DNA of 64,000 nucleotides from a virus, in the IMG/VR virus record IMGVR_UViG_3300022744_000026, positions 1-64,000 of that record; one strand, 5' to 3'. Made by a program: the position numbers and the translations under genes. Each line of letters opens with the position of its first letter. Position 1 is the first letter of the stretch. The notes beneath the pieces were generated by a model that did not search any database, had not been told where the DNA came from, and saw only the letters and a list, made by a program, of their open reading frames with translations. Below are positions 4,256-60,268 of this stretch, one piece after another.

Positions 4256-5253
4256 AAGACTGGCTCGTCGTCAGAGGGCAGGATGCCAGGCTGGCTGGAC
4301 ACCTGTTGCGGCGCAGGTTGAGATTCCGCAATGCCACGAGAGTCGGATGACTCGGCCGGCGGCGGCGTGGCGGCGCGGCGGCGCGGTGCGGGGGCTTGCG
4401 CAGCCGGCGCCGGTGGTGCAGGTTGCGCGGCTGCGGCCTGCTGAATGGCGCCCATGACCTGGGTGGCGACCACGTCGACGGCGGCGGGCTTGGCGGCCAG
4501 TTCGAAGTACTCGCTTGGCTTGGCGCCTTCGCGCAGGGCGTTGAAGACGCCGACCAAGTCGGCGAGTTCATCGACGGTGACGTTGTCCAGCGAGTGGCCG
4601 ACGTACTCGCTCAGGTGCTTGACGCCCACGCCGTACTTGCCGAACGCCGTGACCATGTCGTTCACGCGCTGGCTGATCGACTTGTCATTCGTGCCGGCCA
4701 GCGTGGCGCGGCAGGCTGCCTGCCCAGCAGCCACCAGTGCCTTCGGAAGCAAAGCCGCGATGCGGCCACGCATTTGCTTGCTGGCGACGTTGGCGATCTT
4801 GTTGTCGATGTCGGCTTGATCGGTGAGCTTCTTGGGGCCGTTCTTGGTGTCGACCACATGCATCACGGTGACCTGGCGCGTGCTGAGGTTGTTGCGCTCC
4901 ACGTCCCAGGCGAACACCTCGATTTCGCTCTTGCCTTCGCCGCGGCTCAGTTCGCGGTGGCCGAAGGAGAAGTTGCCGTAGCAGCGGGCGCACTCCTCCA
5001 TGAACCGGATGCTCGGGCCGGTGCCGCGGTTGGGCACGGAGTAGAACGCAGTGGCGGCGAACTCGGTCGACTTGCAGGCGTCCATGAACTCGGCCATGGC
5101 CTGCGCCATGCTGCGCGGGAACATCTTGGCGATCTGGATCTTGCCGCGGACTTCGGCGATCGCGCGCTCGGACTCGATTGCGACTGCGCCAGCGTTGATT
5201 TGCGATTGCGCAATCATCGGGCGGAACGGATCTTGTGGGGTGATGTCGTTCAT
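4252..5253 (-). CDS. Candidate single-strand annealing protein/recombinase
   Basis: Conserved-looking core (AKMFPRS, GPSIRFMEE), Pro/Ala linker, acidic tail SDDEPVF; sits in the RecE-like exonuclease operon. Confidence 0.5.
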   Translation of the reverse strand: MNDITPQDPFRPMIAQSQINAGAVAIESERAIAEVRGKIQIAKMFPRSMAQAMAEFMDACKSTEFAATAFYSVPNRGTGPSIRFMEECARCYGNFSFGHRELSRGEGKSEIEVFAWDVERNNLSTRQVTVMHVVDTKNGPKKLTDQADIDNKIANVASKQMRGRIAALLPKALVAAGQAACRATLAGTNDKSISQRVNDMVTAFGKYGVGVKHLSEYVGHSLDNVTVDELADLVGVFNALREGAKPSEYFELAAKPAAVDVVATQVMGAIQQAAAAQPAPPAPAAQAPAPRRRAATPPPAESSDSRGIAESQPAPQQVSSQPGILPSDDEPVF

Positions 5254-5266
5254 GGGGTCAGTTGGC

Positions 5267-5743
5267 TTACTGGTTGGTGGGGCGGACGGTGTTGATCGCG
5301 CTCTGCACGCTGTCGCTCAGGTACTGGTAGCTCTCGGCGGCCATGGTGACGGCCTCTGGCATGCAGGCGGTCAGCGCCAGGTGGAAGCCCGGCGTGCCAT
5401 TGGGGCCGGTCACGGTCAGGCCGGTGAAGATGCGGCCGGCGACGGCGGCGGCCGACAGCAGCAGCTCGACGGGGGCTGCGACAACCTCATCGCCGCCAGG
5501 GATGCCGGGGGCGGTCATGGCCGGGACTTCCTTCGCCAGCGCCTTGAGCATGTCGCGCTCGGGCGCTTGGTAGTCGACCAGCAGGGCGTGCGATGAGAGG
5601 TCGGACCACTTCATGCCCATGATGGCCCACGCGGGCAGTTCCATCTGACCGCCAGCGGCTGCCATGTGGTCGGCCACCACCTGCGTCGGCAGTTGGTAGG
5701 TGTGCCCCGTGTCGGGGAAGCGGATTTGCATGTAGGTGTTCAT
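5267..5743 (-). CDS. Hypothetical protein
   Basis: 158-aa ORF preceded by TACACT-N6-ATG. Confidence 0.6.
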   Translation of the reverse strand: MNTYMQIRFPDTGHTYQLPTQVVADHMAAAGGQMELPAWAIMGMKWSDLSSHALLVDYQAPERDMLKALAKEVPAMTAPGIPGGDEVVAAPVELLLSAAAVAGRIFTGLTVTGPNGTPGFHLALTACMPEAVTMAAESYQYLSDSVQSAINTVRPTNQ

Positions 5744-5810
5744 GGGTTGAGTGTATTAGCTACGCGGTTGGGCGGGTGATTGGTTGTGGCTATCGGTTGT
5801 TGTGTGGCGA

Positions 5811-7112
5811 TTACGGCGCCGTCTCGATGCTCATCTCACCGCTGGTGACGCGCGTGACGAACAGTTGCAGGCCGGAGGCGATGGCCGACTCGCGGAATGC
5901 TTCGAAGGTGTCGGAACTCATCAACTCAAGTCCGTCGACGCAGCACACGCCGAGCCGGCCGGCGCGCACCTTGGCGAGGTCGACAGCGATCTGCACGCGC
6001 TGCGCGGTGTTCAGGCGATCGAACGGCACGTCGCCGCGGTAAATCTCGCCGTCGCGCACCTCCAGGCCGGGGATGGGCAGGGCGGACAGCAGGTCGAGCT
6101 TGTACTGCTCGATGTCGGCCAGGGCCTTGGTCTGGCGCTCGGCGTCGGCCTGAAGGTCGGCCAGTTGCTGCTGCATGGTCTTGATCGTCGCCTGGGTGGC
6201 CTCGCGGCGGGCGGCGGCGTCGCGGTTGGCGCGGATGGCGGCCAGGGCCTGGGTGATCGGCGCGGCGGCTGCAGTGCGGTCGGCGCGCGCCTTCTCGGCG
6301 GCAGCGCTGGCGCGCAGTTCGGTGGCTGCGAAGGCGGCGTTGGCCTCGGTCATCTTGGTGCGGATGGCGTCGATCTCGGCCTGTAGGGCGGCTTGGCCGG
6401 CTTGGTGGTCGGCGCGCATCTTGGCGAGCTGGCGGTCGATCTTGCCCAGCGTGGCGTCGCGTGCGGTGTCGATTGCGGCAAGCTGCGCGGTCAGTTCGTC
6501 CTCGCTGCCGCTCACGCCGGCCGGCGCGTCAGGCATCGCCGCGCGCAGTTGGTTGATGGTGGCGTCCTTCTCCCGCACCGCGCGGTTCGTGCCGGTGCGG
6601 TCGTCGTAGACCTGGCGGCGCACGGCGTCGATCGTCGCCAGCGCGTGTACACCCGGCTCGGCGGTGACGGTCACGCCAGAAATCTGCGACAGCCTCTCGG
6701 TGTCGGCCTGCAGCGGCATCGACTCCAGCAGCACGCGGGCGCGGTCGCCGGGGCGGGCCATCAGGAAATCGACGGGGTTGACGGACATGAGGTCCACCAG
6801 CGCAGCCAGGGCCTGGGCCGGCTTGGCGCTCGCCTTGCCGTCTGCCGCCTTCACTGCGCGCGTGGTGCCGCTGGGCGTGACGCGGGTGGTGATGCTGCCG
6901 CCGTTGTCCAGCACCAGCACCACCTCGCCCTTGTCGGCGCCAGCGCGCAGCAGGGTGGCGTCGTGTCCGCCCTTGAGTGCGCCGCGGATGGCGTCCAGCG
7001 CCGAGGTCTTGCCCTGGCCGTTGTCGCCGGTGAAGGCGGTGAACTGCCCGGCGTCGAATTCGAGCGAGTCGATGCCGAGGATGTTCGAGATTTTGACGTG
7101 GTTGATTTTCAT
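5811..7112 (-). CDS. SMC/SbcC-like coiled-coil ATPase
   Basis: ISNILGI, Walker A GDNGQGKTS, long coiled coil, C-terminal LNTAQR and CCVDGLE. Confidence 0.8.
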   Translation of the reverse strand: MKINHVKISNILGIDSLEFDAGQFTAFTGDNGQGKTSALDAIRGALKGGHDATLLRAGADKGEVVLVLDNGGSITTRVTPSGTTRAVKAADGKASAKPAQALAALVDLMSVNPVDFLMARPGDRARVLLESMPLQADTERLSQISGVTVTAEPGVHALATIDAVRRQVYDDRTGTNRAVREKDATINQLRAAMPDAPAGVSGSEDELTAQLAAIDTARDATLGKIDRQLAKMRADHQAGQAALQAEIDAIRTKMTEANAAFAATELRASAAAEKARADRTAAAAPITQALAAIRANRDAAARREATQATIKTMQQQLADLQADAERQTKALADIEQYKLDLLSALPIPGLEVRDGEIYRGDVPFDRLNTAQRVQIAVDLAKVRAGRLGVCCVDGLELMSSDTFEAFRESAIASGLQLFVTRVTSGEMSIETAP

Positions 7113-8823: not shown

Positions 8824-10227
8824 ATGAGATTTGGAAGCGTGTGCAGCGGCATTGAGGCCGCATCTGTCGCATGGGGATCACTCGGATGGCGCGCGGCTTG
8901 GCTGGCGGAAATCGAGAAGTTCCCCTCCGCAGTGCTCGCACATCACTACCCGGATGCACCCAACCTGGGCGACATGACGGCGCTGCCGGATCGCATCCGG
9001 TCAGGAGAAATCGAGGCGCCGGACGTGTTCTGCGGCGGCACGCCTTGTCAGGCGTTCAGCGTGGCCGGCATGCGCCGCAGCCTGGACGACGCTCGCGGCA
9101 ACCTGTCGCTCACCTTCTGCACCATCGCCAATGAAATCGACGCAATTCGATCTGTTCGAGACGAGCAACCCTGCATCGTCTTTTGGGAAAACGTCCCAGG
9201 AGTCCTCAGCACCAAAGACAATGCATTCGGCTGCTTTCTGGCGGGACTTGCCGGCGAGGAGCTTCCACTACTCCCGCCAGGGGGTAAATGGACAAACGCA
9301 GGTGCTGTGTTTGGTCCCGCGCGAACAGTCGCGTGGCGGGTCACTGATGCCCAATATTTCGGAGTGGCCCAACGACGCCGTCGTGTGTTCGTTGTCGCAA
9401 GTGCTCGAAAGGGGTTCGATCCCTGCGCGGTACTTTTTGAGTTCGACGGCGTGCGCAGGGATACTGCGCCGAGCCGAGAAGCGGGGGAAGGCGCTGCCGG
9501 TGGCGCTGGAGCAGGCGCTACGTTCGGTTGCGAAGGCATAGGCGCCTACGCCACCAGCGCCACCAGCGCCACCAGCGCCACCAGCGCCACCAGCGCCACC
9601 AGCGCCACGCTACTAAAGACCGGGCAGGACTTGGGGCCTGGTTGCGAGGCTCTGGTGAGTGCGTATGGCGGCAACAACACCACCGGCCCCATTGATGTGG
9701 CGACCGCACGAAATGCGTGCGCCAGCGCCAGCGGTCGGATGGACTTCGAGTCTGAGACGTTCTTGGTGCAGGCCGCCGAGTGCATCACTGGCGCTGTCAC
9801 CCACACACTGAAGGCGGACGGGTTTGAGGCGTCGGAGGATGGGACTGGGCGGGGGGGGCCGATGGTGCGCAGCATGGGGCATGACGGCAGTCATGCGAAT
9901 GGTGGTGGTCAGGTGGCGGTGGCGTTTCAATCCAGTCAGTCCGGCGTTAGATTCGGCGACGCTCATGCAACGCTTGATAGCAACAACGGGAGCAGGCGCC
10001 ACAACGGCGTTGCAACCGCCATGCAAGTCCGCCGCCTGACCCCCATGGAATGCTGCCGCCTGCAGGGCTTCCCCGACGATTACCTGAGCCAGGTCACATG
10101 GCGCGGCAAGTGCCCGCCACCAGACGGGCCGATGTACAAGGCGCTCGGCAACTCCTGGGCTGTGCCGAACGTGGCGTGGATCGGCCGTCGCATTGTGGCT
10201 GAGCTGGAGCGCGGCAATGAGGCTTGA
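8824..10227 (+). CDS. DNA cytosine-5 methyltransferase
   Basis: Motifs SVCSGIEA, GGTPCQAFS, WENVPG, QRRRRVF, RRLTPMECCRLQGFPD, ALGNS. Confidence 0.95.
   Translation: MRFGSVCSGIEAASVAWGSLGWRAAWLAEIEKFPSAVLAHHYPDAPNLGDMTALPDRIRSGEIEAPDVFCGGTPCQAFSVAGMRRSLDDARGNLSLTFCTIANEIDAIRSVRDEQPCIVFWENVPGVLSTKDNAFGCFLAGLAGEELPLLPPGGKWTNAGAVFGPARTVAWRVTDAQYFGVAQRRRRVFVVASARKGFDPCAVLFEFDGVRRDTAPSREAGEGAAGGAGAGATFGCEGIGAYATSATSATSATSATSATSATLLKTGQDLGPGCEALVSAYGGNNTTGPIDVATARNACASASGRMDFESETFLVQAAECITGAVTHTLKADGFEASEDGTGRGGPMVRSMGHDGSHANGGGQVAVAFQSSQSGVRFGDAHATLDSNNGSRRHNGVATAMQVRRLTPMECCRLQGFPDDYLSQVTWRGKCPPPDGPMYKALGNSWAVPNVAWIGRRIVAELERGNEA
9131..9541 (+). CDS. Nested alternative-frame ORF resembling an M.EcoHK31I beta-type methyltransferase subunit
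   Basis: CSLSQVLE...RYFLSSTACAGILRRAEKRGK.LP..LE lies wholly inside the MTase gene in another frame. Confidence 0.7.
   Translation: MKSTQFDLFETSNPASSFGKTSQESSAPKTMHSAAFWRDLPARSFHYSRQGVNGQTQVLCLVPREQSRGGSLMPNISEWPNDAVVCSLSQVLERGSIPARYFLSSTACAGILRRAEKRGKALPVALEQALRSVAKA
9550..9608 (+). repeat. 9-bp tandem repeat (GCCACCAGC)x6 plus a partial copy, encoding (ATS)6
   Basis: Read directly from the sequence. Confidence 0.95.
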
Positions 10228-13163: not shown

Positions 13164-15962
13164 TTGTCAGACGTCACACTCGATATTGCTGAGTCAGCTT
13201 TGCAGGCGGTGTCGCCTGACTGTGACCGGAGAGAGTGGGCCCGAATGGCGCTGGCCATGTATGACGAGTTCGGCGACGCCGGGTTCGATGCGTGGGATCG
13301 GTGGAGCCAGGGTGGCAGCTGTTACAACGAGAAGGACGCCCGGTCGACGTGGCGGTCGTGCGCGAGGGCCGGCGGTGCGGTGCGGGTCACCATCTCGGCG
13401 GTCATATGGGCTGCGCAGAACGTCGGCTGGCGCATGCCGAACACCACGCGCGGCACGTCGCGGGCGGATGACGTCGAGCGGCTCGCGAGGGTGCGGCAGG
13501 CGATGGAGCGCGAGCGCGAGGAGCGGCGTCGCGCGCAGGATGCCGCTGTCGCCGAGGACCAGGCCGCCGCCGCCGCGCTGGCGAAGTCGATATGGGATGC
13601 CGCCAAGCCGGCGCCAGCCGATCACCCGTATCTAGTGCGCAAGGGTATCCCTGCGGAAGGGCTGCGCATCGGCGAGTGGAATGCCGACTATGTGACCGAT
13701 GACGGCGAGGTGGTCCGCCGCCGCGTGTCTGGTGCGCTGATCATCCCGATTTGGGCCGGACCCGGCCGACTGTCGAGTCTGCAGGGCATCTTCCGCGATG
13801 CATCCAACAAGCTCAAGCGCGACCGCGACTACTTGCGCAACGGGCGCAAGCAGGGCTGCTATACGGTCCTGGGCAGGATCACTGCCGACACCCACACCGT
13901 GGGCATCGGCGAGGGCTACGCGACCTGCTACAGCGTGCACGCGGCGATGGGCTGGCCTGTGGTGGTGGCGTTCGACGCCGGCAACCTCATGGCGGTGGCG
14001 CAGGCTCTGCGCGCCAAGCTGGGCGGCTGCCGCATCATCCTGGCGGCGGACAATGACCAGTGGCATGGCGACGGCAAGAATCCCGGCGTCGAGTCAGCCA
14101 AGCGCGCAGCCGAGGCGGTGGCTGGCATGTTGGTTGTCCCGGAGTTCGACCCCACCGAGCCCGGCGAGCCGACCGACTGGAATGACCTGGCGCAGAAGTC
14201 AGGGCTTGCCGCGGTGGTCGCGCAGTTCGACCTGGCGCTGAACCCGCCCGCCGCGCCGCCAGCGCCGGCCGTGCCCAGCGAGCCGCCGACTCTGCCGCCG
14301 CCACCGATGCCGGTGGCCGGCGACGAGCCGGACATGGAGCGCAACGGGTACTTCTCGGTCCTGGGGTATGACCACGACACCTATTACCTGTTCCAGCACG
14401 AGCGCCGGCAGATATCGAGGTACACCAAGGGCGACTTCGGCAAGGCTGGCCTGATCGAGCTGGCGCCGCTGAACTGGTGGGAGACATACTTCCCCGGCAA
14501 GCAGGGCCTGGACGCCAGTGCTGCCATGAACTGGCTCATCCGCGTGGCGGCGCGCCGCGGCATCTACGACATCAGCCGGATTCGCGGGCGCGGCGCGTGG
14601 ACGGACGACGGGCGCATTGTCTACCACCACGGCAGCAGTCTGACGGTGGACGGACAGGTGACGGATGTGACGCGGATTGTGAGCCGGTATGTCTACGAGC
14701 TGGACCGGCCGCTGCCGGATCCGGCGCCGGAGATGCTGACCAGCGATGAAGGCGAGGCGATCCTCGACCTGGCGATGAAGTTCAGGTGGTCGAAGCCTGG
14801 GAGCGCTGCGCTGGCGGCTGGATGGGCTGCGCTGGCGCCTGTTTGCGGGGCGCTGAAGTGGCGTCCGCATGTCTGGTTGGCGGGTGGCCCGGGGTCCGGG
14901 AAATCAACAGTTCTTAACGATTTTTTGTTTTTCCTTACAGGCGGACTGGCTTTGTTCGCACAAGGCAACTCGACCGAGGCCGGCATCCGCCAGTCCCTGC
15001 GCGCGGATGCGCTGCCAGTGCTCTACGACGAAAGCGAGCAGAACACCGATCAGGAGCGACACCGTGTGCAGGGCATCATCGCCCTGATTCGCCAGAGTTC
15101 AACCGAATCTCAGGCGCGCACACTGAAGGGCACGGCCGGCGGCGAGGCCAGCGCGTACCACATCCGCAGCATGTTCTGTCTCGCCTCCATCCAAGTCGGC
15201 CTGCGCAACCAGGCCGACACCGAACGCATCAGCCAACTCAACCTGCGCCCGAAGCACGAGGACCGAGACCCGGCCGCGACGTGGGCGGCGCTGTCGAAGG
15301 CGCTGGCGGCTCTGCGCGCCGACAAGGAACTGCCCGCCAGGCTGCTGCGCCGCTCGATCGACCTGCTGCCGGTGACACTGCAGAACATCGGCGTATTCAG
15401 TCGGGCCGCCAGCGAGCGGTTTGGCAGCGTGCGCGACGGCGACCAGTACGGGACATTGCTGGCGGGCGCATGGTCGCTGCAGTCCACAGAGGTTGCCGGG
15501 CATGACGAGGCGCTGGAGTGGATCGACCGATACGACTGGAGCGAGCACCGAGACCAGGCGGATGGCGACACCAGCGAGGATGCCCTTGCCGCCCTGCTGG
15601 AGCGCCGTGTGCGCGTGTCTGGCAGCATCGAGGCCACGGTGTACGAGTTGATCCGCGAGGCGCGCGGACAGTCGAACAACGGCCTGGACATCGGCAAGTC
15701 GATCGCCGAGGCTACGCTGACGCGCCATGGCATGCGCTTCACGCCGGACTGGCTGGTGTTCGCCAACAAGAGCCTTGGCCTGACCGAACTCATGCGCGGC
15801 ACGCCATACGAGCAGGACATGCGCGGCCTGCTGCTGCGCATCAAGGGCGCAGACCGCAACGACAACCAGCCGATGTCGATCAACGGCACGGCCACCAAGG
15901 TGGTTAGGGTGCCGCTGACGCGAGTGCTGGGGCAGCAGCGGTATCTGGACGAGCCGTTCTAG
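13164..15962 (+). CDS. Primase-helicase (PriCT-2-like + TOPRIM + P-loop ATPase)
   Basis: WARMALA..WDRWS; HPYLVRKG; GEGYAT, AFDAGNL, ADND, DWND; GGPGSGKS, YDESE; likely TTG start at 13164 after AGGGG. Confidence 0.9.
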   Translation: MSDVTLDIAESALQAVSPDCDRREWARMALAMYDEFGDAGFDAWDRWSQGGSCYNEKDARSTWRSCARAGGAVRVTISAVIWAAQNVGWRMPNTTRGTSRADDVERLARVRQAMEREREERRRAQDAAVAEDQAAAAALAKSIWDAAKPAPADHPYLVRKGIPAEGLRIGEWNADYVTDDGEVVRRRVSGALIIPIWAGPGRLSSLQGIFRDASNKLKRDRDYLRNGRKQGCYTVLGRITADTHTVGIGEGYATCYSVHAAMGWPVVVAFDAGNLMAVAQALRAKLGGCRIILAADNDQWHGDGKNPGVESAKRAAEAVAGMLVVPEFDPTEPGEPTDWNDLAQKSGLAAVVAQFDLALNPPAAPPAPAVPSEPPTLPPPPMPVAGDEPDMERNGYFSVLGYDHDTYYLFQHERRQISRYTKGDFGKAGLIELAPLNWWETYFPGKQGLDASAAMNWLIRVAARRGIYDISRIRGRGAWTDDGRIVYHHGSSLTVDGQVTDVTRIVSRYVYELDRPLPDPAPEMLTSDEGEAILDLAMKFRWSKPGSAALAAGWAALAPVCGALKWRPHVWLAGGPGSGKSTVLNDFLFFLTGGLALFAQGNSTEAGIRQSLRADALPVLYDESEQNTDQERHRVQGIIALIRQSSTESQARTLKGTAGGEASAYHIRSMFCLASIQVGLRNQADTERISQLNLRPKHEDRDPAATWAALSKALAALRADKELPARLLRRSIDLLPVTLQNIGVFSRAASERFGSVRDGDQYGTLLAGAWSLQSTEVAGHDEALEWIDRYDWSEHRDQADGDTSEDALAALLERRVRVSGSIEATVYELIREARGQSNNGLDIGKSIAEATLTRHGMRFTPDWLVFANKSLGLTELMRGTPYEQDMRGLLLRIKGADRNDNQPMSINGTATKVVRVPLTRVLGQQRYLDEPF

Positions 15963-25737: not shown

Positions 25738-27834
25738 GTGCGCGGGGTTGTGCAGAGGCGTAGGGGCCTGCCGGACTACCGCAGCGGCCTGTCGAGCCTG
25801 ATCTCGAAGCTGGAGGAGAAGACCGGCTATCGGGTGGCAAAGGTCGGCATCGAGGCGGGCGTGACGTTCCGCGACTGGTGCGAGGAGCTTGGCCGCAAGG
25901 GCATGAAAGTCGACGGAAAGCCGTTCAAGCTGGACGACCGCCCGGCCATGGCATGGATCTACGATCAAGTGCCCAGCACTGAGGATGAGGCCTACCGCCT
26001 GGTGCTGGTGCTGATGAAATGCGCGCAGGTGGGTTTTACGGTCATGGAGATGCTTGCGTGCATCTACCTGGGCCTGCGCTTCGGGCCGGCAATCGTCGGC
26101 ATGTTCCTGCCGGACATGAACCTCGCCGGCCTGAAGTCGACCGAGCGGTTCATGCCCATCGTGCGCTCCACGCCGAGCGTGCACGAGCTGATGACTCAGG
26201 ACGCGCCGGACGGCAGCGGGCGCAAGCAGGGCGAGGGCAACGTCAACCGCCGCCGCATTGGTGAAGCGCTGTTCGTGTTCAGTTGGACATCTGGCCGGGC
26301 CACCACCGAGTCTGTGCCCATGGACGTCCTGAGCTTCGATGAAGTGCAGGAAATGACGCTGGAGCAGATGGAGAAGACCATCGAGCGCCTGAGCGCCAGC
26401 CCGCTGCGTTTCGTGCTGATGGGGTCGACCGCCAACTGGCCTGATGCCGACATCCACCACTGGTACAAGCGCGGCAGTCGGCGGCGCTTCCATACCCGCT
26501 GCCGCACATGCGGTGTGGCTGAGCCCATCGATGAGTACTTTCCGCAGTGCTTCAAGTTCGATGAGGCCACGGGTGTGCATCGGTACACCTGCCGGGCAGG
26601 GCACGTGATCGATGACCCGCAGGACGGCGAGTGGATCGCCGAAAACCCGGATGCCGACCCGCCGGTGAATCTGGACATCCCCAAGAAAGACCGGCCGCTG
26701 CGGATCCGCAGCATCCACTTCCCGCAGATGCTGAGCCCGACGATCAGCCCGACTGAAATTTGGGACGCCTACCGGTTCGCGGAGTCGATGAAGAACTTCT
26801 TCAACCGCAAGTTGGGGAAGCCGTATCTGGATCCGAGCCAGGTTCCGGTGACGCTGGAGCACCTGCGCGAGGCCGAGCGCCAGGGCATCGCCATGGGCCT
26901 GCAGTGGGAGTCCCGCGGCAAGGGTTGCTTCATGGGCATCGACCAGATGGGCAACTTCAATGTCGTGGTGATCAAGCGTCGGCTGGACGATGGCCGGCAG
27001 GCGCTGGTGCACGCCGAGCTGGTCTACGACGCCGACCCTTTCCAGCGGTGCAGCGCGCTCATGGAGGCATTCGGCGTCTATGCGTGCGTGGTCGAAATCA
27101 ACCCGAACTACAACGACGCGAAGCGCTTCGCCAACCGCCACCCTGGTCGGGTGTTCATCTGCGACAGCTTCGGCAAGGTGGCGGAAGGCATGATCCAGTG
27201 GGGCGACGCCATGAAGCTGGACACCAGCGAAAGGCGCACCAGCGAGGATGCGCGCGACCGCTACACGCTGCGCATGGACCAGTTCAAGTGCATGCAGGTC
27301 AGCATGGCGCGGTTCACGCACACTGACCCACGCACCGGCGCGCCCGCCCCGCTGTGCCTGTTCCCGGACGCGCAGGGGCTGGTGCAGGATGTGGTCGAGT
27401 CAGGCGCCAGGCAGCAAAAGCCAGTCCTGCCGATCGCGTGGCACCACTTCACGAAGACCGCGCTGGTGTCCGAGAAGGACGACGAGACGAACAAGTACAA
27501 GCGCGTCGTCAAGAAAATCGGCATCGACCCGCACTTCAGTTATGCGAACATGCTGTGCGATGTCGCATGGGCCCGCGCGCATGGGACGACGCTTTTCATC
27601 ATGCCCGAGGAGTCGTCCACCATGAGCGCGAAACTGGACAACGACATGGCGAGGCTCGACCTCTCCAAAGTCCCATCCGCCCACGCCGCCCGCGTCGTGG
27701 AGATCATGACCGCCCCGACCGTCACCGGCACCTGCGGCACCTGCACGGCCTACATGGACGGCCAGTGCACCGAGCGAGGCTTCAACGTGGCGGCGCGCGA
27801 CACGGCGTGTGACCTGTACGCGGCTGAGGCGTGA
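25738..27834 (+). CDS. terL: Terminase large subunit, GpA-like
   Basis: KCAQVGFT Walker A variant, SFDEVQEM Walker B, GST coupling motif, Zn ribbon, MGIDQ nuclease Asp, DPHF. Confidence 0.9.
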   Translation: MRGVVQRRRGLPDYRSGLSSLISKLEEKTGYRVAKVGIEAGVTFRDWCEELGRKGMKVDGKPFKLDDRPAMAWIYDQVPSTEDEAYRLVLVLMKCAQVGFTVMEMLACIYLGLRFGPAIVGMFLPDMNLAGLKSTERFMPIVRSTPSVHELMTQDAPDGSGRKQGEGNVNRRRIGEALFVFSWTSGRATTESVPMDVLSFDEVQEMTLEQMEKTIERLSASPLRFVLMGSTANWPDADIHHWYKRGSRRRFHTRCRTCGVAEPIDEYFPQCFKFDEATGVHRYTCRAGHVIDDPQDGEWIAENPDADPPVNLDIPKKDRPLRIRSIHFPQMLSPTISPTEIWDAYRFAESMKNFFNRKLGKPYLDPSQVPVTLEHLREAERQGIAMGLQWESRGKGCFMGIDQMGNFNVVVIKRRLDDGRQALVHAELVYDADPFQRCSALMEAFGVYACVVEINPNYNDAKRFANRHPGRVFICDSFGKVAEGMIQWGDAMKLDTSERRTSEDARDRYTLRMDQFKCMQVSMARFTHTDPRTGAPAPLCLFPDAQGLVQDVVESGARQQKPVLPIAWHHFTKTALVSEKDDETNKYKRVVKKIGIDPHFSYANMLCDVAWARAHGTTLFIMPEESSTMSAKLDNDMARLDLSKVPSAHAARVVEIMTAPTVTGTCGTCTAYMDGQCTERGFNVAARDTACDLYAAEA

Positions 27835-29852: not shown

Positions 29853-29999
29853 TCATTGATGACGCACATACTCGACTGGCTCAAGCGATGGGCCGACCTC
29901 ACCATGGGGCGGCCGACTTCTTTCTGTCTCTCAGAGTGTGCGGCATGATCCCGTCGATCCGGCGCTAACCCACTCCCATCGTGACGCTACCCTCCCCCA

Positions 30000-31742
30000 A
30001 TGGACACCGCACGCCACGTCGCCTTCAACCCTGCCGCTCCTGACGACGAGCGGCAGGACGCCCTGAGCGAGCTGACGAAGGCGCACATGCCGTCAGCGGC
30101 GCCAAGCTCCAACATGCTGGAGCTGGTGCAGTACGTGCGCGAGCAGTACGAGGCCGACAGCATGGAGAAGGCCATGCATGCGCAGAACGTGGTGCCTTTC
30201 CCCAGCATGGCGGCGCGCGAGCACAAGCCCGGCCAGCAGTCTGTGTGGCTGGATGACGTGCAACTGAACATCCAGGGCAACTGGTACGAGCGGCCGACCG
30301 GGTTCAGCTTCGACGCCATGCGCGCCATGGTGCACGGCACGCCGTTGCTGAATGCGATCATCATGACGCGCCAGCGCCAGGTGGCGCGGTTCTGCCGTCA
30401 GAACGTGGTGGGCCGCGGGGAGGGCTTTCGCATCGCGCTGAAAGACCCCAAGGCCAACCCCGACAGCAGCCAGCAGGCAGCCATCGGTCTGATGCAGGAC
30501 TTCTTCCAGAATTGCGGCTGGGAGCGCAAGGCGCGTCAGCGCATGCGGCTGCGGCGCGACAGCTTTGCGGGATTCATGACGAAATCCCTGCGCGAGACCC
30601 TGACGCTCGACAGCATGCCGATCGAGACCGAATGGAAGCGCGACAAGCGCCTGGGACTCGACGGCATCTATGCCGTCGACGGCAGCACCATTCGCCTGTG
30701 CACAGAGCAGGGCTACGACGGCGACGACGAGATTTTCGCGCTGCAGGTGGTGCAGGGGCAGGTGCGCAGCGCGTACACCTACGACGACCTGATCTATGTG
30801 CCGCGAAACCTGCGCGCCGACGTCACTGCTGGCGGCTACGGGCTGAGCGAGACGGAGATCCTCATCAAGGTGGTGACGGGCTTCCTGAACGCCTTCACCT
30901 ACAACACGGGGTACTTCGACAACAACAAGATCCCCAAGGGGATGCTGCACCTGACCGGCAACTACAGCGAGCAGGACATCAACGCCTTCAAGAGGCAATG
31001 GAACGCCATGGTGAAGGGCGTGAACAACGCCTGGACGCTGCCGGTGATGGTGAGCAAGGATCAGGAGTCGAAGGCTGCCTTCGAGAACTTCGGCGCCGAG
31101 CAGAACGAAATCATGTTCGCCAAGTGGATGACCTTCCTGGCGAGCCTGGCGTGCGCAATCTACGCCATCGACCCGACCGAGATCAACTTCGAAGCGTTCA
31201 CTGCCGGCACGTCGAGCCTCAGCGGCAGCGACACCGAGGAGAAGATCGCCCACAGCACCGACAAGGGCCTGCGGCCGATCCTGAGCTACTACGAAAGCCT
31301 GTTCACCGACTACGTGGTGAGCGAGTGGGGCGACGAGTACGTCTTCCGCTGGACCGGCCTGGACGACGAGGCGCCCGAGCAGATTTTCGAGCGCCAGAAG
31401 CTGGTGATGACCGTCAACGAGATGCGCGCGCTCGACAACATGGAGTCGATCGATGACCCATGGGGCGACTCGCCGATCAACCCGTCACTGCAGTCGGCCT
31501 GGCAGATGAGCCAGCAGCAGGGGCAGGAGGACTACGGCCAGCCAGGGGCGCCGCAGCCTGGCGCCGAGCAGCAGGGCGACGAGGACGGCCAGGACTTCGG
31601 CCAACCGCAGGCCGGCGACTTCGGGCAGCCGAAGCCTGACCAGCCCGAGCAGGCCGCGCCTGCCGAGCAGCCGCAGGACGCCGACACCGTCGCCAAGGCA
31701 TTCGGCCTGCCGGCGCTGCCGATCTACGGGATCAACGAGTGA
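30000..31742 (+). CDS. Portal protein
   Basis: VDGSTIR, GYGLSETE, YFDNNKIPKGML, MTVNEMR; acidic Q/P-rich tail; follows terminase. Confidence 0.9.
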   Translation: MDTARHVAFNPAAPDDERQDALSELTKAHMPSAAPSSNMLELVQYVREQYEADSMEKAMHAQNVVPFPSMAAREHKPGQQSVWLDDVQLNIQGNWYERPTGFSFDAMRAMVHGTPLLNAIIMTRQRQVARFCRQNVVGRGEGFRIALKDPKANPDSSQQAAIGLMQDFFQNCGWERKARQRMRLRRDSFAGFMTKSLRETLTLDSMPIETEWKRDKRLGLDGIYAVDGSTIRLCTEQGYDGDDEIFALQVVQGQVRSAYTYDDLIYVPRNLRADVTAGGYGLSETEILIKVVTGFLNAFTYNTGYFDNNKIPKGMLHLTGNYSEQDINAFKRQWNAMVKGVNNAWTLPVMVSKDQESKAAFENFGAEQNEIMFAKWMTFLASLACAIYAIDPTEINFEAFTAGTSSLSGSDTEEKIAHSTDKGLRPILSYYESLFTDYVVSEWGDEYVFRWTGLDDEAPEQIFERQKLVMTVNEMRALDNMESIDDPWGDSPINPSLQSAWQMSQQQGQEDYGQPGAPQPGAEQQGDEDGQDFGQPQAGDFGQPKPDQPEQAAPAEQPQDADTVAKAFGLPALPIYGINE

Positions 31743-32467
31743 AGACCGCCGCGCAGCAGCAGGCCCAGCCGATCCCCGGCTGCGCGCCTGGCGACGAGGT
31801 GTGGCTCAAGCACCCGGACGGGCCCGTGACCGCGAAAGTCCTGGCGCACGGGCAGCACGGTCTGACCGTCGACGTCGGCGGCAAGCAGCACCGCGTGAAG
31901 TGGGACAAGGTGCACGGGCACAAGCGGCGCACGGCCATCAACATGCAGGTCGAGGACGAGGGCGAGGATGGAATGGTGGTGCGCGACCAGCTCGGCCGGC
32001 GGCATTTCGTGGCAGTGCCTCCCGAGGCACGCGAGGAGCGGATGGTGGTGAAATCACATGGTGGCGGCGCCAGGCTGCTGGTGTTCGCAAAGGCGCTGAA
32101 GCAGCCCGAGAACGAGCAAGGCGGCTGGACCGAGGCGGGCAAGGCGCCGGCAAGCAAGGGCCATCACGTGGCGTTCCAGCACGGCGAGCACGCCGGCCGC
32201 GGCGAGGTGCAGGCGGCGGGCCGGGATGGCGTGACCGTGAAGGACGGCGCTGGCGCCAGCCATCAGGTGCCGCACAAGGCTATCACGCACCGGTGGGAAG
32301 GCAAAGAGGCGCCGACCGCTGGCCCTGGTGAGCCGGCCAGCCCGTCAGACGAGCTGCGCGAGTTCCTGGCCGGGCTGCTGAAAGACGCGCCGGACGACGT
32401 GCAAAAGTGGATCGGCCAGTACGTGCAGAGCCAGTCGAGCGAAGAAAAAGCCGATCGGCCTGGTTGA
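31739..32467 (+). CDS. Head-associated protein with repeated SH3-like beta units
   Basis: Two similar G..V....V.A.G..G.TV....H.V units separated by VVKS...LLVFAKA. Confidence 0.6.
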   Translation: MKTAAQQQAQPIPGCAPGDEVWLKHPDGPVTAKVLAHGQHGLTVDVGGKQHRVKWDKVHGHKRRTAINMQVEDEGEDGMVVRDQLGRRHFVAVPPEAREERMVVKSHGGGARLLVFAKALKQPENEQGGWTEAGKAPASKGHHVAFQHGEHAGRGEVQAAGRDGVTVKDGAGASHQVPHKAITHRWEGKEAPTAGPGEPASPSDELREFLAGLLKDAPDDVQKWIGQYVQSQSSEEKADRPG

Positions 32468-32517
32468 AAGAGGTTAGAGTAGTGTCTCTGCTAAACCTCA
32501 ACTCACCAGCAACTCAC

Positions 32518-32694
32518 ATGGCAACCACTTTCACCATCGGCCAAAAGGTCACCTACAAGCTGCACACCGGCCGCACCGGTTCGGGCGTCATCGACAGCAT
32601 CAGCAACGGTGCGCGCGGCGCGTTCTACGCTGTCAAGCACGACGACGGTACGATCCTGAAGCTGCGTGCTGCGCAGATCACGTCGGCGGCCTGA
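32518..32694 (+). CDS. Small SH3/KOW-like protein
   Basis: FTIGQKVTY...G.I...YAVKHDDG. Confidence 0.55.
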   Translation: MATTFTIGQKVTYKLHTGRTGSGVIDSISNGARGAFYAVKHDDGTILKLRAAQITSAA

Positions 32695-32712
32695 GCAGGC
32701 AGCGAGCGAGCC

Positions 32713-32955
32713 ATGATCATTCGCACTTCGCGGCACAGGTTCAATCTGCCGGTTTCACTGTGGGTCAGCCTCGCAGTAGCAGTCGTGGTGTCTGTGCTGG
32801 CCTTCTGGCTACCCATCCATGGGCGCGGCGATGTGTGGTGCAGCATCTGCGGATGCATTGCATGGCTCTGGTGCTTCGCTGAGCGCGACAAGCGCGCGGC
32901 TACCGTCTACGAACCGATGATCCAGCGCATCGATACGTTTGACCACCGATGGTGA
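32713..32955 (+). CDS. Small two-TM membrane protein
   Basis: Hydrophobic segments. Confidence 0.5.
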   Translation: MIIRTSRHRFNLPVSLWVSLAVAVVVSVLAFWLPIHGRGDVWCSICGCIAWLWCFAERDKRAATVYEPMIQRIDTFDHRW

Positions 32956-32959
32956 GCAA

Positions 32960-33990
32960 AGCGCCCGGCACCCGCCGGGCCATCAAGTCAGCCGGCGTAT
33001 GCCCGTTGACTTGATGGCCCCACATCCAAGGCTTGGCCCCTTGGAGTTCCCAGCGATGGGGAGATACACGAGACACGCTGCCTTATGCGAGTGTGGGGCC
33101 GTCAGCTATCACAGATGCGCCAGCCGGAAAGCCCGGCAACTGCGCGACAAACAGTCCCAAGCCTGGGGCATCTGTGATGGTTGCACGCAGAAATGCGCAC
33201 ATAGACCGACGAGGGAAGGCGTCTGCTGGACGACGCCGGAAGACGATACGCGGATCATCACCGCCCCTGCGACTCGGGTCTCAGTCTTCACCGACCATCA
33301 CCAAATTCCGGACCGCGGCCCACAGCGCGATGGGAATCAAAACAGGCTTTCTGTGGGCGAGCTGAGGCGCGCGAGATAAGCGCCACCGTGAGGCGGACCG
33401 TTAAGTCGTCAACACCTGGGGCAGCCCGGGGCGCGCAGGGGTAGTGCCTGACAAACCACCCGGGGGAAGGGCCCGGGGCCACCGGATTGCGAGCAGCACT
33501 GGCGACTGCAGCAGACTGTAAATCTGTAGCCCCTAGGGGCAACGGGGTTCGACTCCCTGGCAATCCACCACTGACCATCATCACAGCGGGTGAGCGCCTG
33601 CTGCGATGATGGCCGGCGCAGTCTTGGCCTCTGCGCATCGAGCCGCACACCCCGTGCGCGCCCGCGGTAAGCACCCTGCCTCATGGGATCGGTCGTCAAC
33701 AGCCGTTGTAACGGATGCCGCTGGGCCTACGGCCGGAGTGCATCGCCGCAGTCTACGTAAGCGGCACAATCAACAAGCGGTGGGTAATCGGCCTAGAGTC
33801 GTCATCATCCCCCACTGGCCGGGAAACCGGCTGACGCGAATAGCCGATCTGCGGCGGTCTCGCGCCACAAGGTCGCCGCAGACTTCAGCGCCACCCCCGG
33901 GTGGCGTTGTCGTTTGTAACGTGCATCCTCCTCAGCGCCCCGTGGCGCCGTTGCCTACCCCCGCGCCTAGGCGGGTCACAAGCCCGGCCT
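32960..33990 (+). ncRNA. Candidate large structured ncRNA(s) flanking the tRNA
   Basis: Consecutive 10-21 bp stems with G-U pairs and GNRA loops; no convincing ORF. Confidence 0.6.
33484..33570 (+). tRNA. tRNA-Tyr(GTA), class II, encoded CCA
   Basis: GGATTGC/GCAATCC acceptor stem plus ACCA; GCAGA-CTGTAAA-TCTGT anticodon arm; long variable arm; TTCGACT T-loop. Confidence 0.92.
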
Positions 33991-34038
33991 GATAAATTAA
34001 ATTTGCGTCATCAACTACCGCGCTTCGGCGCTAATGTC

Positions 34039-34644
34039 ATGACGCAGATCAAACACCTCCTGGCCGCCGCCCTGTGCGGCATTTCGTTCGCTGCCGCCGC
34101 TGGCGGCTCTGGCGAGTACCGCACCAGCGGCACGGCCTCGGGCAGCACCAGCGGCACGGCAACCGCCGTCGCGCGCACCGCGCCGGGCCAGATGGGCAGC
34201 TCGTACAGCTTCGCCAGCGGCGAGGGCCGCGCCACATACAGCGCCACCCCTGGCGCCGGCTCGTTCGACGTGTCGAGCAGCGGCATCGCGTGGAACCAGT
34301 CGACCGGCGGCGCCACTGGGCAAGCCACATCGCTCGGCGACTCCCGCGCCACCATTGCCAGCGGCACGCGCGCAGTCGGCGGGAGCGGTGTAGGGCAAGC
34401 CGGCTACAGCATCGCTGCCGGCGACAACCAGGGCATTACCGCCAGCGGGCAGGCCACGGGCAACTACACAGCCAGTGCGGTGCCTGGGTCTGCGCGGGTG
34501 ACCTACACGGCTGACGCCCTGGCGGGCAAGGGCGGTGTAACCGTCGACGGCACGCCCCTGGCGGCCGGCACCGGCACGTCCATGGCCTCGGCTGTGGCAA
34601 ACGCCGTCGCTGGCGTGGCCGTTCGTACCCACGGCGAGGACTGA
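34039..34644 (+). CDS. Exported Gly/Ala/Ser-rich protein
   Basis: Signal peptide MTQIKHLLAAALCGISFAAAA. Confidence 0.7.
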   Translation: MTQIKHLLAAALCGISFAAAAGGSGEYRTSGTASGSTSGTATAVARTAPGQMGSSYSFASGEGRATYSATPGAGSFDVSSSGIAWNQSTGGATGQATSLGDSRATIASGTRAVGGSGVGQAGYSIAAGDNQGITASGQATGNYTASAVPGSARVTYTADALAGKGGVTVDGTPLAAGTGTSMASAVANAVAGVAVRTHGED

Positions 34645-34647
34645 TCC

Positions 34648-35550
34648 ATGAAGCGCATCCTTGCAGTGATCTGCCTGGGTGTCGCTTCGGCGGCATCCTG
34701 GGCGCAGTCCAGCGCGACGCAGCAAGCGGACGCGGCGGCGAGCAATGCCGGCGTGAGCACCGGCGTGCAGTCGCAGTCGAGCGCGCAGACGTGGGTGTTC
34801 CCGGCACCGGTGGCCCCGGGCATGGTTGTGGCGGCCAAGTGCACGAATGCCGGCGTCAAGTCGGCCGCGCTGCTGTTCAACTTGGTTTCGTGGTCCGTGC
34901 CTGACCGCGAGGTGTCGCTCGGCTGTCAGGCTGCGGCTGACATCGACATGCTGGTGCGGCTGTGCCAGTTCGGCGCCGCGGCGCGCGTGCAAGCGCATTA
35001 CCTGCGCGCGGCATACGGCATCGAGGTGGCGCCACACCCAGGCGCGGTCGACCTGGGGCCGGACGAGTGCTTCAAGCCGAAGGCGGCGCCAGCGCCTGTG
35101 CCCATCGAGGCGCTGCCGCCGACGTCGGCCGGGCCGGCGCCCGTGGCGCAGCCGGTGGTGGAGGTGCACCCGTTGCCGCCGGCACCGGCGCCTGCGCCGC
35201 CAGCGCCACCCGCCGCGGCGCAGCGCCAGCCGTTCGAAGTGACCGTCCTGTTCCCGTTCGACAAGTCAACTCTCGACGCGAACGCCCGCACAGCCCTGGA
35301 CGTCGCTGCCAGGTACGTGCAAGCCACGCCAGCCGCCAAGCTGGTGCTGACCATCGGACACGCCGACCGCAAGGGCGCCGCCGCCTACAACGTCGACCTG
35401 TCGCGGCGTCGCGCCGAGTCCGTGAGCGCATTCCTCTTGGCGGCCGGCGTGCGCCCCGAGATGATGCGCATCGAGTACCGAGGCAGCACCGAGCCCGTGT
35501 CACCGCAGGATGAGCGAAACCGACGCGCCACCTTGCAGGTGATTGAGTAA
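34648..35550 (+). CDS. OmpA C-terminal (peptidoglycan-binding) domain protein
   Basis: Signal peptide, Pro linker, FPFDKSTL, GHADRKG..YN..LSRRRAESV, NRRA. Confidence 0.9.
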   Translation: MKRILAVICLGVASAASWAQSSATQQADAAASNAGVSTGVQSQSSAQTWVFPAPVAPGMVVAAKCTNAGVKSAALLFNLVSWSVPDREVSLGCQAAADIDMLVRLCQFGAAARVQAHYLRAAYGIEVAPHPGAVDLGPDECFKPKAAPAPVPIEALPPTSAGPAPVAQPVVEVHPLPPAPAPAPPAPPAAAQRQPFEVTVLFPFDKSTLDANARTALDVAARYVQATPAAKLVLTIGHADRKGAAAYNVDLSRRRAESVSAFLLAAGVRPEMMRIEYRGSTEPVSPQDERNRRATLQVIE

Positions 35551-59014: not shown

Positions 59015-60268
59015 ATGGATGTCTCAAAGTTCCTAGCGTTTGCGGTCGCGGGCCCGGCCGACACGGCTGTCACCGTCAGCAAGCTAGCGACTTTTGCCGT
59101 TGTCGGCCCGGCTGACACCGACACCACCGTCAGCAAGTTCGTCGCCTTCGTGGTGGCTGACTTCTCCGCGCCGCAGACGGATGGTGTCACGGAGGCTGCA
59201 TCTGCTGCTGATGCCGTCTCGGCGATTCAGGTGCTGCTGGCGTCGGTCAGCGAGTCCGCGACGGCGAGCGATACGGCATCCGGCGTCCAGTCCGCGGCCG
59301 GCGACCTGACTGAGGCGGGTACTGCGGTCGATACGCAGTCGACGTCCTCTGTCGTGCCTGGGCAGGTGTCGGAGGCGGCTGGCGCCGCTGACGCGGCCAC
59401 GGCGGCCAACGCGCTCGGGGTCAGTGTTGCCGAGACCGCCAGTGCGGCCGATGTGCCGTCAGCGGCTCAGACCACGCCGGCCGCGCTGGCTGAGACCGCG
59501 GCAGCCACCGACCTGCTGTCGACCGTCCTGGCGGCTGTTGCGGCACTGTCTGAGGCGGCAGCGTCGGCGGACGCCGTGACGGCTGGCCTGCGGCTGTCCG
59601 TGCTGGTGTCGGAGGCGGCTGCTGCGACTGACGCCGTTGCGGCGGCGTTTGCAGCCACGGCCAGCCTCGCTGAGTCGGCCGGCGCGGCAGACGCGCAGAG
59701 CGCCGCCCAGCAGCTCAACGTGGTCATTCTGGAGGCCGGCGCTGCGGATGATCTGGTGTCGGGCGTCCAGGCGGCCATTGCGGCGCTGAGTGAAGCGGCT
59801 GCTGCCGGCGACGTGGCGGCCGGCGCTGCGACTCTGGTGACGTCGGTGGCCGAGCCCGTGGCTGCGCTGGATGATGCCGCGGCGGTGCTGCTGGCTGTTG
59901 CTGGCGTGGACGAGCCCGCCGCGGCCTTGGACGACGCCAGCGGCGAGGCGATCGAGAACGCCAGCCTGACCGAGCAGGCGCAGTCATCCGACGACTGGTC
60001 TGGCGTGCGGCATCTGGTGGCGGCCTTGGCAGAGCAGGCGGCTGCTGGTGACCTGATCATCATCATCAGCGATCTGCCTGCCCACGGCGACCGCGCCTTC
60101 ACCATCACCGACACGCCCGGCGCGCGGGTGATGGTGGCGACGACGCCTGGCGGCGGGCGGGTGTTCCGCGTCGACACGCCAGACGGCGGCCGGGTTCTGG
60201 TGGTCGAGCCGGCAGCGCCGAGAAATTTCATCGTCGGCCCGCGTCGTGTGTTCATCATCAAGCCCTGA
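59015..60268 (+). CDS. Repeat-built fibre protein
   Basis: About 15 x 20-aa [VL]xExAxAxD repeats, plus terminal 18-aa and roughly 11-aa repeats. Confidence 0.7.
   Translation: MDVSKFLAFAVAGPADTAVTVSKLATFAVVGPADTDTTVSKFVAFVVADFSAPQTDGVTEAASAADAVSAIQVLLASVSESATASDTASGVQSAAGDLTEAGTAVDTQSTSSVVPGQVSEAAGAADAATAANALGVSVAETASAADVPSAAQTTPAALAETAAATDLLSTVLAAVAALSEAAASADAVTAGLRLSVLVSEAAAATDAVAAAFAATASLAESAGAADAQSAAQQLNVVILEAGAADDLVSGVQAAIAALSEAAAAGDVAAGAATLVTSVAEPVAALDDAAAVLLAVAGVDEPAAALDDASGEAIENASLTEQAQSSDDWSGVRHLVAALAEQAAAGDLIIIISDLPAHGDRAFTITDTPGARVMVATTPGGGRVFRVDTPDGGRVLVVEPAAPRNFIVGPRRVFIIKP

Follow-up and report, generated by a model that had tools for sequence, protein, structure and literature searches.

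A non-coding RNA island around tRNA-Tyr in a hypervariable slot of a PHB04-like freshwater phage

Genomic setting

The stretch analysed here, referred to as the window, comprises 64,000 nucleotides of a 78-kb IMG/VR virus record from an uncultured freshwater phage, with an estimated completeness of 85%. Near-identical DNA is present in freshwater and wastewater metagenomes; sequencing runs X5-X7 hold small shares only of the sequence. The gap under study lies 3' of a large terminase gene (25738-27834) and a portal gene (30000-31742) whose relatives are found in Bordetella phage vB_BbrM_PHB04 (66% identity) and in Pseudomonas, Aeromonas and Yersinia phages of 90-95 kb. It is preceded by an 80-aa open reading frame (32713-32955), the stop codon of which is located 22 nt before the first hairpin, H1. 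The features of the gap, together with two RNA motifs of its relatives, are collected in Table 1.

The order of portal gene, p31739 homologue, variable DNA and homologue of the MuF-like p37299 is kept in 36 related viral contigs. In most relatives the variable DNA contains a tRNA-Met, and other contents are an added tRNA-Gly, a tRNA-Thr, or a tmRNA with an anti-hemB sRNA (L016), while the slot is almost empty in L026, L028 and L037. With contents that differ among relatives, the slot is thus a hypervariable one for RNA genes. It is here, with the portal module on one side and the MuF-like head gene on the other, that the gap of this PHB04-like phage forms a non-coding RNA island; a similarity search of the gap against GenBank phages returned no match. 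Note that the slot of L016 (5682-7299) combines tRNA-Met and the M2 motif described below with a beta-proteobacterial tmRNA (85-106 bits) and an anti-hemB match of 54.7 bits versus a gathering score of 49.5, contents that point to probable Burkholderiales-type hosts for this phage group. In the window, ARAGORN finds no tmRNA, and no Rfam tmRNA match was obtained at E<=10.

Table 1. Position and predicted structure of the features in the gap, and of two motifs in related loci
Feature	Position	Strand	Description
Hairpin H1	32977-33020	+	20-nt arms, 18 paired (90% complementary), 4-nt loop, no U tail
Stem competing with H1	33012-33104	+	arms 33012-33024/33092-33104, 13 nt, 92%
Unit U1	33068-33212	+	M3, long hairpin 33103-33183 closing a multibranch, small CGCA-GAAA-UGCG hairpin
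Motif M3	33075-33091	+	ACGCUGCC-NN-AUGCGAG; single copy in the window
Domain A	33200-33290	+	bulged 7-bp closing stem, inner stem, two hairpins
Insert INS1	33304-33695	+	392 nt, missing from L039; holds tRNA-Tyr and H2
tRNA-Tyr	33484-33570	+	anticodon GTA, long variable arm, encoded CCA (ARAGORN)
Hairpin H2	33574-33614	+	begins 4 nt after CCA; 8 bp, 1x1 internal loop, 8 bp, tetraloop
Domain B	33696-33766	+	long irregular hairpin; 89% identical to L039:106-177
Replaceable cassette	33767-33885	+	117 nt; module M1 and 13-bp hairpin 33848-33882
Module M1	33777-33831	+	55 nt; 7-bp stem around a 4-bp hairpin and a 9-nt single strand, then a GNRA-capped hairpin
Intrinsic terminator	33886-33915	+	10-bp stem (hairpin 33886-33909), then UCGUUUGU
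Spacer and 5' leader of gene 34039-34644	33916-34038	+	last 35 nt conserved with L039
Motif M2 (relatives)	L004:13915-13972; L005:14098-14155; L025:4061-4118; L007, L016, L038, L027, L030, L032; L035	L035: minus	38 nt; see text
LH type-1 hairpin (relatives)	L004:13975-14082; L005:14143-14287, 14331-14448; L030:14233-14341; L032:14153-14280; L040:5398-5501; L042-L058		see text

Coding potential and overall folding

An earlier, sequence-only reading of this DNA had described the ~1 kb around the tRNA as non-coding, and this view is upheld by our analysis. The difference between maximum and minimum codon-position GC is at most 0.16 throughout 32956-34010, as opposed to 0.2-0.58 in the flanking genes, and none of the open reading frames of the gap matched a family in Pfam or PHROG. 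Conserved protein coding across the region was thus found neither by GC periodicity nor by either family collection.

Folding was compared with dinucleotide shuffles, as that reading had proposed. The z-scores were -2.87 (plus strand) versus -1.87 (minus strand) for the upstream half, -2.30 versus -1.82 for the downstream half and -3.07 versus -1.71 for 33075-33915, i.e. the plus strand folds 2.3-3.1 and the minus strand 1.7-1.9 standard deviations better than shuffled sequence. When 400-nt windows were taken at 16 spaced positions of the genome, the plus-strand z-score was most negative at 33000, the other positions ranging from -2.67 to +3.83. Raw folding energies are about equal on both strands (-386.9 kcal/mol for plus, -388.1 kcal/mol for minus). 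The structure signal of the gap is real and of moderate size. The proposal that wobble pairs favour the plus strand stands with respect to z-scores, covariation and the G-U pairs themselves, which, like the G-C to G-U changes, are compatible with the plus strand alone, but it finds no echo in the raw energies.

All stems listed earlier were located in the sequence, and so were the GNRA loops (GCGA near 33053, GAAA at 33190 and GAAA at 33822). The perfect 14 bp of 32977-32990/33007-33020 continue into the longer arms of H1, the GCCCACAG/CTGTGGGC stem is found at 33319/33351, and the stem 33848-33860/33870-33882 consists of 13 bp with two G-U pairs. The description of the stems as lacking U tails is correct for H1, but not for the last hairpin, 33886-33909, which has a U-rich tail and scores as a terminator.

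Upstream modules

Inside the stem competing with H1 lie two small hairpins, one of them with the GCGA loop, and motif M3. Over ~530 otherwise identical bases, the near-identical strains of runs X2 and X3 deviate by four substitutions and the deletion of 1 nt, every one of them within the predicted single-stranded 10-nt patch 33062-33071. M3 recurs in the RNA islands of L005 and L032 (two copies each), L030 and L004 (spacer 1 nt shorter). Considered as a promoter of the sigma-70, sigma-54 or late type, it showed no fit by eye and occurs only once in the window.

Within unit U1, the arms of the long hairpin (33103-33123/33163-33183) extend over 21 nt with 86% complementarity and include two G-U pairs on the plus strand. 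U1 is homologous to L005:15356-15510. The global alignment of the two scores 41, as opposed to 10.4 +/- 4.5 in 500 shuffles, none of which exceeded 27 (z = 6.7), and seven further non-coding pieces gave scores of 6-17. The order of M3, long hairpin and small hairpin is common to the window and L005.

The islands of L004, L005, L030 and L032 resemble that of the window in that they occupy the same slot on the same strand, contain M3 and match no Rfam family. They differ in combining M3 with tRNA-Met, M2 and long LH hairpins, where the window has tRNA-Tyr and no M2, and in missing domains A, B and M1.

The M2 motif is built from two 4-bp helices around an invariant GGAGACGU, and it is found in the islands of ten relatives without matching an Rfam family. 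Compensatory changes occur in both helices, and the covariation was matched by none of 500 shuffles. In L025, M2 stands directly upstream of M1. Searched with the corresponding model (R1), the window gave a best match of E=0.53 in coding DNA, and the candidate string GCCGGAAGACGAUACGCGG was ruled out by the same model.

The LH type-1 hairpins share the stem UCACG-CA-UGCG ... CGCA-GU-CGUGA with a fixed 2x2 internal loop and a variable top of 44-85 nt. We count 20 distinct instances on ~18 contigs, including several that lie within tRNA arrays (L045, L049, L054). Unconstrained stem pairs have 42 double-change cells versus 15 +/- 3 in shuffles, pairing amounts to 94% versus 32-42% when the partners are slid, U-G pairs fix the strand, and Rfam holds no match. 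Of the hairpins of the gap, 33103-33183 was not listed at E<=10 with the LH model (R3) in spite of its likeness by eye, H2 reached E=0.28 on the minus strand, and H1 E=3.8 to 6.2. Elsewhere in the window, the LH model gives 26 bits (E = 4.5e-5) to the short palindromic hairpin ACCAUCAC ... GUGAUGGUGAA at 60075-60161.

Domain A

Domain A, with the conserved sequence GACGAGGRAAGGCGU (model R2), recurs in three other phages, L039, L026 and L060. The match in L026 (nhmmer, E=8e-4) is on the strand of the tRNA-Asn of that contig. A pattern scan added L060, a phage contig with ~50% GC and another set of genes. Its copy reaches 85.8 bits with a model to which it had not contributed, and all 21 pairs are retained. 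Over the four sequences, which are all that the covariation of domain A draws on, standard pairs fill 83 of 84 pair cells and four pairs have compensatory changes, one of them reading CG, CG, GC and UA; a second alignment (A11) was fitted to the model, and the other modules have two sequences each. When the partners were moved by 1-3 columns as a control, pairing decreased to 38-56%. Several of the G-U pairs are possible on the plus strand alone. These sequence comparisons show domain A to be a structured, conserved RNA module without a match in Rfam. Covariation, which the earlier reading had put forward as a check, is thereby seen in parts of the island such as domain A, and no conserved helix between modules was found.

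The distance from domain A to the tRNA downstream of it is 190 nt for tRNA-Tyr in the window, 88 nt for tRNA-Arg in L039 and 148 nt for tRNA-Asn in L026. No tRNA was found in the 1.9-kb piece of L060; here the domain stands alone between genes, followed by what by eye is a hairpin with a U-run and then by a good promoter for the next genes. Both the solitary position of domain A in L060 and its conservation above the level of the flanking genes argue that at least some modules may have a role in their own right.

Directly upstream of domain A in L026, positions 9404-9440 (minus strand) resemble the 3' half of a tRNA with T-arm, acceptor strand and CCA. The piece was called by neither ARAGORN nor the Rfam tRNA model and is possibly a decayed tRNA cassette.

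tRNA-Tyr and the modules downstream

The Rfam tRNA model scores 40.2 bits on tRNA-Tyr, versus a gathering score of 29. Inside INS1 the gene is surrounded by a 19-nt long-range stem (33429-33447/33645-33663) and followed by H2, the arms of which (33575-33590/33597-33612) measure 16 nt each. The borders of INS1 are similar linker words, CATCACCA and CGTCAACA, of 8-13 nt. The word GTCGTCA has three copies in the 1.08-kb gap versus 0.16 per kb genome-wide. CAUCA-type words are only ~4-fold enriched, on the plus strand, and TGATGGCC, considered as a genome-wide repeat, has 7 copies versus 3.6 expected.

For domain B a scan of viral contigs gave no match, and its similarity to L026 was not convincing. 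M1, in turn, is 93% identical to L025:4113-4167, although the portal of that phage is only 61% identical, and it is also present with unrelated flanks in a wastewater contig from run X3. Three of the differences are within the predicted structure and keep the fold (G-U to G-C, a hairpin-loop base, and GAAA to GCAA, again a GNRA loop), and the fourth is in the 9-nt single strand. Scans of viral contigs with both halves of M1 found L025 as the sole match, and the scan of genome contigs for M1 found none.

Terminator, promoters and downstream genes

The island ends in an intrinsic terminator on the plus strand, with a GC-rich stem (33886-33909) and the U-run TCGTTTGT. It is conserved in L039 and L040, and one stem pair of L040 is changed on both sides. 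In 32400-34400 no sigma-70-like promoter was found. The late promoter-like sequence CGTGACNNBANNNT has 12 copies versus 1.4 expected, just upstream of virion genes (25054, 28198, 29980, 37279, 38423, 40036, 48583, 53664, 54459, 57130, 63585 on the minus strand, and 63605). The copies at 29980 and 37279 precede the portal and the MuF-like gene, respectively, with no further copy between them.

Downstream, gene 34039-34644 encodes a protein of 201 aa with a signal-peptide-like N-terminus and no family match; relatives of this family were found neither in viral contigs and genome contigs nor in GenBank phages. L039 and L040 are metagenomic loci that were reached via this gene. With a gene for an OmpA-domain protein it forms a two-gene unit (window 34039-35550; L039:411-1874; L040:5998-7416) that, along with the terminator before it, travels among phage backbones unrelated to one another and looks like moron-type cargo. 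L040 is another phage, temperate in appearance, whose genes include a repressor-like one, O-like and DnaB-like replication genes and RecT. Before the same terminator it has ~0.8-0.9 kb of non-coding DNA (5066-5880) with z = -5.3 on the plus and -2.6 on the minus strand (-395 versus -347 kcal/mol), no tRNA and one LH type-1 hairpin, and after it follow homologues of window genes 34039-34644 and 34648-35550. As a homologue of the gap this region was rejected, the terminator alone being common to both.

Comparison with close relatives

The closest relative found is L039, with a p37299 homologue that is 78% identical. Its contig begins at window position 33193, and the comparison covers the island from there on. 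L039:3-111 matches window 33195-33303, that is domain A, at 89% identity, and domain A is joined directly to domain B (L039:106-177). L039 is without 33304-33695, and the window therefore carries an extra 392 nt relative to it. In place of 33767-33885 L039 has a tRNA-Arg(TCT) at 186-262, and the terminator comes next in both. In the strain of run X2, 33766-33882 are replaced by 30 other bases, with the same boundary as the swap in L039.

Identity to L039 amounts to 89% in domains A and B versus 69-77% in the neighbouring coding DNA, and the few substitutions keep the predicted pairs, often by changing G-C to G-U. Note that this degree of identity could reflect recent recombination rather than selection. 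Homologues of the modules are scattered, with U1 in L005, domain A in L039, L026 and L060, and M1 in L025 and the contig from run X3; a search of 58 loci yielded no module homologues beyond those named here. A helix conserved between distant modules was not found, and each conserved module is self-closing in the predicted folds. Phages gain, lose and exchange modules at the linkers, which makes the island a mosaic instead of a single large RNA that is conserved as a whole.

Relation to known RNA families

That the region cannot be assigned to GOLLD or ROOL, as had been supposed from the sequence, was confirmed with Rfam 15, which gave no match to either in 32600-34400 at the gathering threshold or at E<=10. 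In this region the tRNA alone exceeds a gathering threshold, and matches at E 0.2-10 are at chance level. The covariance model of GOLLD, representing its conserved 3' domain, was run with permissive filters and gave no match at E<=10, nor did the model of ROOL at the same cutoff. GOLLD and ROOL are large ornate RNAs of phages and prophages that occur near tRNA islands, and tRNAs are sometimes found inside the GOLLD linker (Weinberg 2017, PMC5737381; cryo-EM preprint 10.1101/2024.12.08.627333). The context in the window, a phage with terminase and portal and a tRNA in the gap, is the one in which these RNAs occur, but context alone does not confer membership. Like GOLLD and ROOL, the gap is phage-borne, non-coding and hairpin-dense, with GNRA loops; unlike them, it is without a large conserved core, its conserved units extend over 55-140 nt only, and between close relatives its modules change order, disappear or give way to others.

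In the tRNA cluster of phage T4, small stable RNAs of unknown function (species 1 and 2) are co-transcribed with the tRNAs and matured from a common precursor. With tRNA and small structured RNAs in one non-coding unit, this cluster is the nearest functional analogue of the island. There is however no sequence relation, and the island, with its putative transcript, contains one tRNA and several unrelated modules.

Interpretation

The locus is a tRNA-island-associated structured phage RNA. In the reading that we favour, and consider probable, the gap encodes a plus-strand precursor that is processed into tRNA-Tyr and small structured RNAs and that is built from swappable modules; transcription, processing and module roles are what we infer here. 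Rightward transcription would either run through from the late promoter-like site at 29980 or start at an internal promoter, and would end at the conserved intrinsic terminator 33886-33915. The precursor would fold into a chain of self-contained domains with short CAUCA-rich linkers between them, in the order H1, M3 domain, long hairpin, small GAAA hairpin, domain A, tRNA-Tyr in its long-range stem, H2, domain B, M1 with its adjoining hairpin, and terminator. Host RNase P and enzymes of the RNase E/III type would presumably release tRNA-Tyr, and the other domains could be small stable RNAs or else cis-acting elements for processing or stability. The long stems of 16-20 bp, which pair almost perfectly and have no U tail, would fit double-strand-specific processing or protection of 3' ends. 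Between phages, the modules are exchanged at the linkers.

The sequence-only reading had instead considered the ~1 kb as a single new RNA class. Stated fully, this is one large structured RNA of ~0.85-1 kb, from ~33070 or 32960 to the terminator, with the tRNA in a linker, that would act as a single folded unit. Structured sequence on both sides of the tRNA, the single terminator at the end, the full-length plus-strand z-score of -3.07 and the conservation of some modules with covariation are all in line with it, as is the strongly folded ~0.8 kb before the same terminator in L040, but the terminator is all that this region has in common with the window. Nor did GOLLD, ROOL or any other large RNA give a match at E<=10. 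L039 dispenses with 392 nt and has a swapped cassette, strain X2 swaps 117 nt, and the homologues of the modules occur in different phages, orders and contexts. The conserved pieces are short, self-closing and scattered over different phages, no conserved long-range pairing was found, and we regard the single class as unlikely.

A second alternative, which we hold to be quite unlikely, is that most of the region is functionless spacer, that only tRNA-Tyr and the terminator matter and that the hairpins arose by chance from GC-rich DNA or decayed cassettes. The z-scores of only about -2 to -3, the equal energies of both strands, a slot that is hypervariable and empty in some relatives, and the lack of a detectable homologue for most of the region in 36 relatives would all be expected of a spacer. 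It is less easily reconciled with domains A and B being more conserved than the flanking genes, with the 83 of 84 pair cells of domain A kept in four phages, one of them of ~50% GC and with unrelated context, with the homology of U1 to L005 (z = 6.7), or with the 93% identity of M1 to L025, where the portals are 61% identical.

The hairpins might also act on the DNA level, as folded single-strand recombination or insertion sites that capture tRNA and RNA cassettes, much as integron attC sites or hairpin-recognising transposases do. Cassettes are indeed gained and lost at fixed boundaries (33303/33304, 33695/33696 and 33766/33883), INS1 is placed between similar words of 8-13 nt, and GTCGTCA is concentrated in the gap. 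However, the boundaries are in linkers and not at hairpins, no recombinase or transposase gene was found adjoining the island, the hairpin sequences do not appear to fit attC core sites, and the terminator and the shared orientation with the tRNA fit transcription, so that we regard this explanation as very improbable. Hidden small protein genes, finally, are hardly credible: open reading frames of 96-146 codons do exist on both strands, but GC3 periodicity is flat, Pfam and PHROG gave no match, the 13 substitutions that separate domain A from L039 are distributed as 5, 6 and 2 over the three codon-position classes (our own count), so that no frame concentrates them at its third position, and relatives are set apart from the window by indels of 392 and 87 nt, the former not a multiple of three.

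The locus adds several conserved folded modules that are missing from Rfam 15, among them domain A with compensatory changes across four phage contexts unrelated to one another, in addition to the hairpin family and the two-helix motif of its relatives, and it shows modules exchanged as cassettes between close relatives. Phage tRNA islands are now regarded as tools for translation takeover and counter-defence, and we know of no function for GOLLD or ROOL. More tentatively, domain A, U1 and M1, along with LH and M2 of the relatives, may be undescribed cassette-borne small structured phage RNAs with functions of their own and not mere spacers, a possibility to which we lend some, if limited, weight. 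If so, such RNAs could be, for example, decoys or regulators of host RNases, of tRNA-targeting defences or of the translation apparatus. Should the modules be stable RNAs, they would provide a small and tractable set for addressing the role of non-tRNA RNAs in phage tRNA islands.
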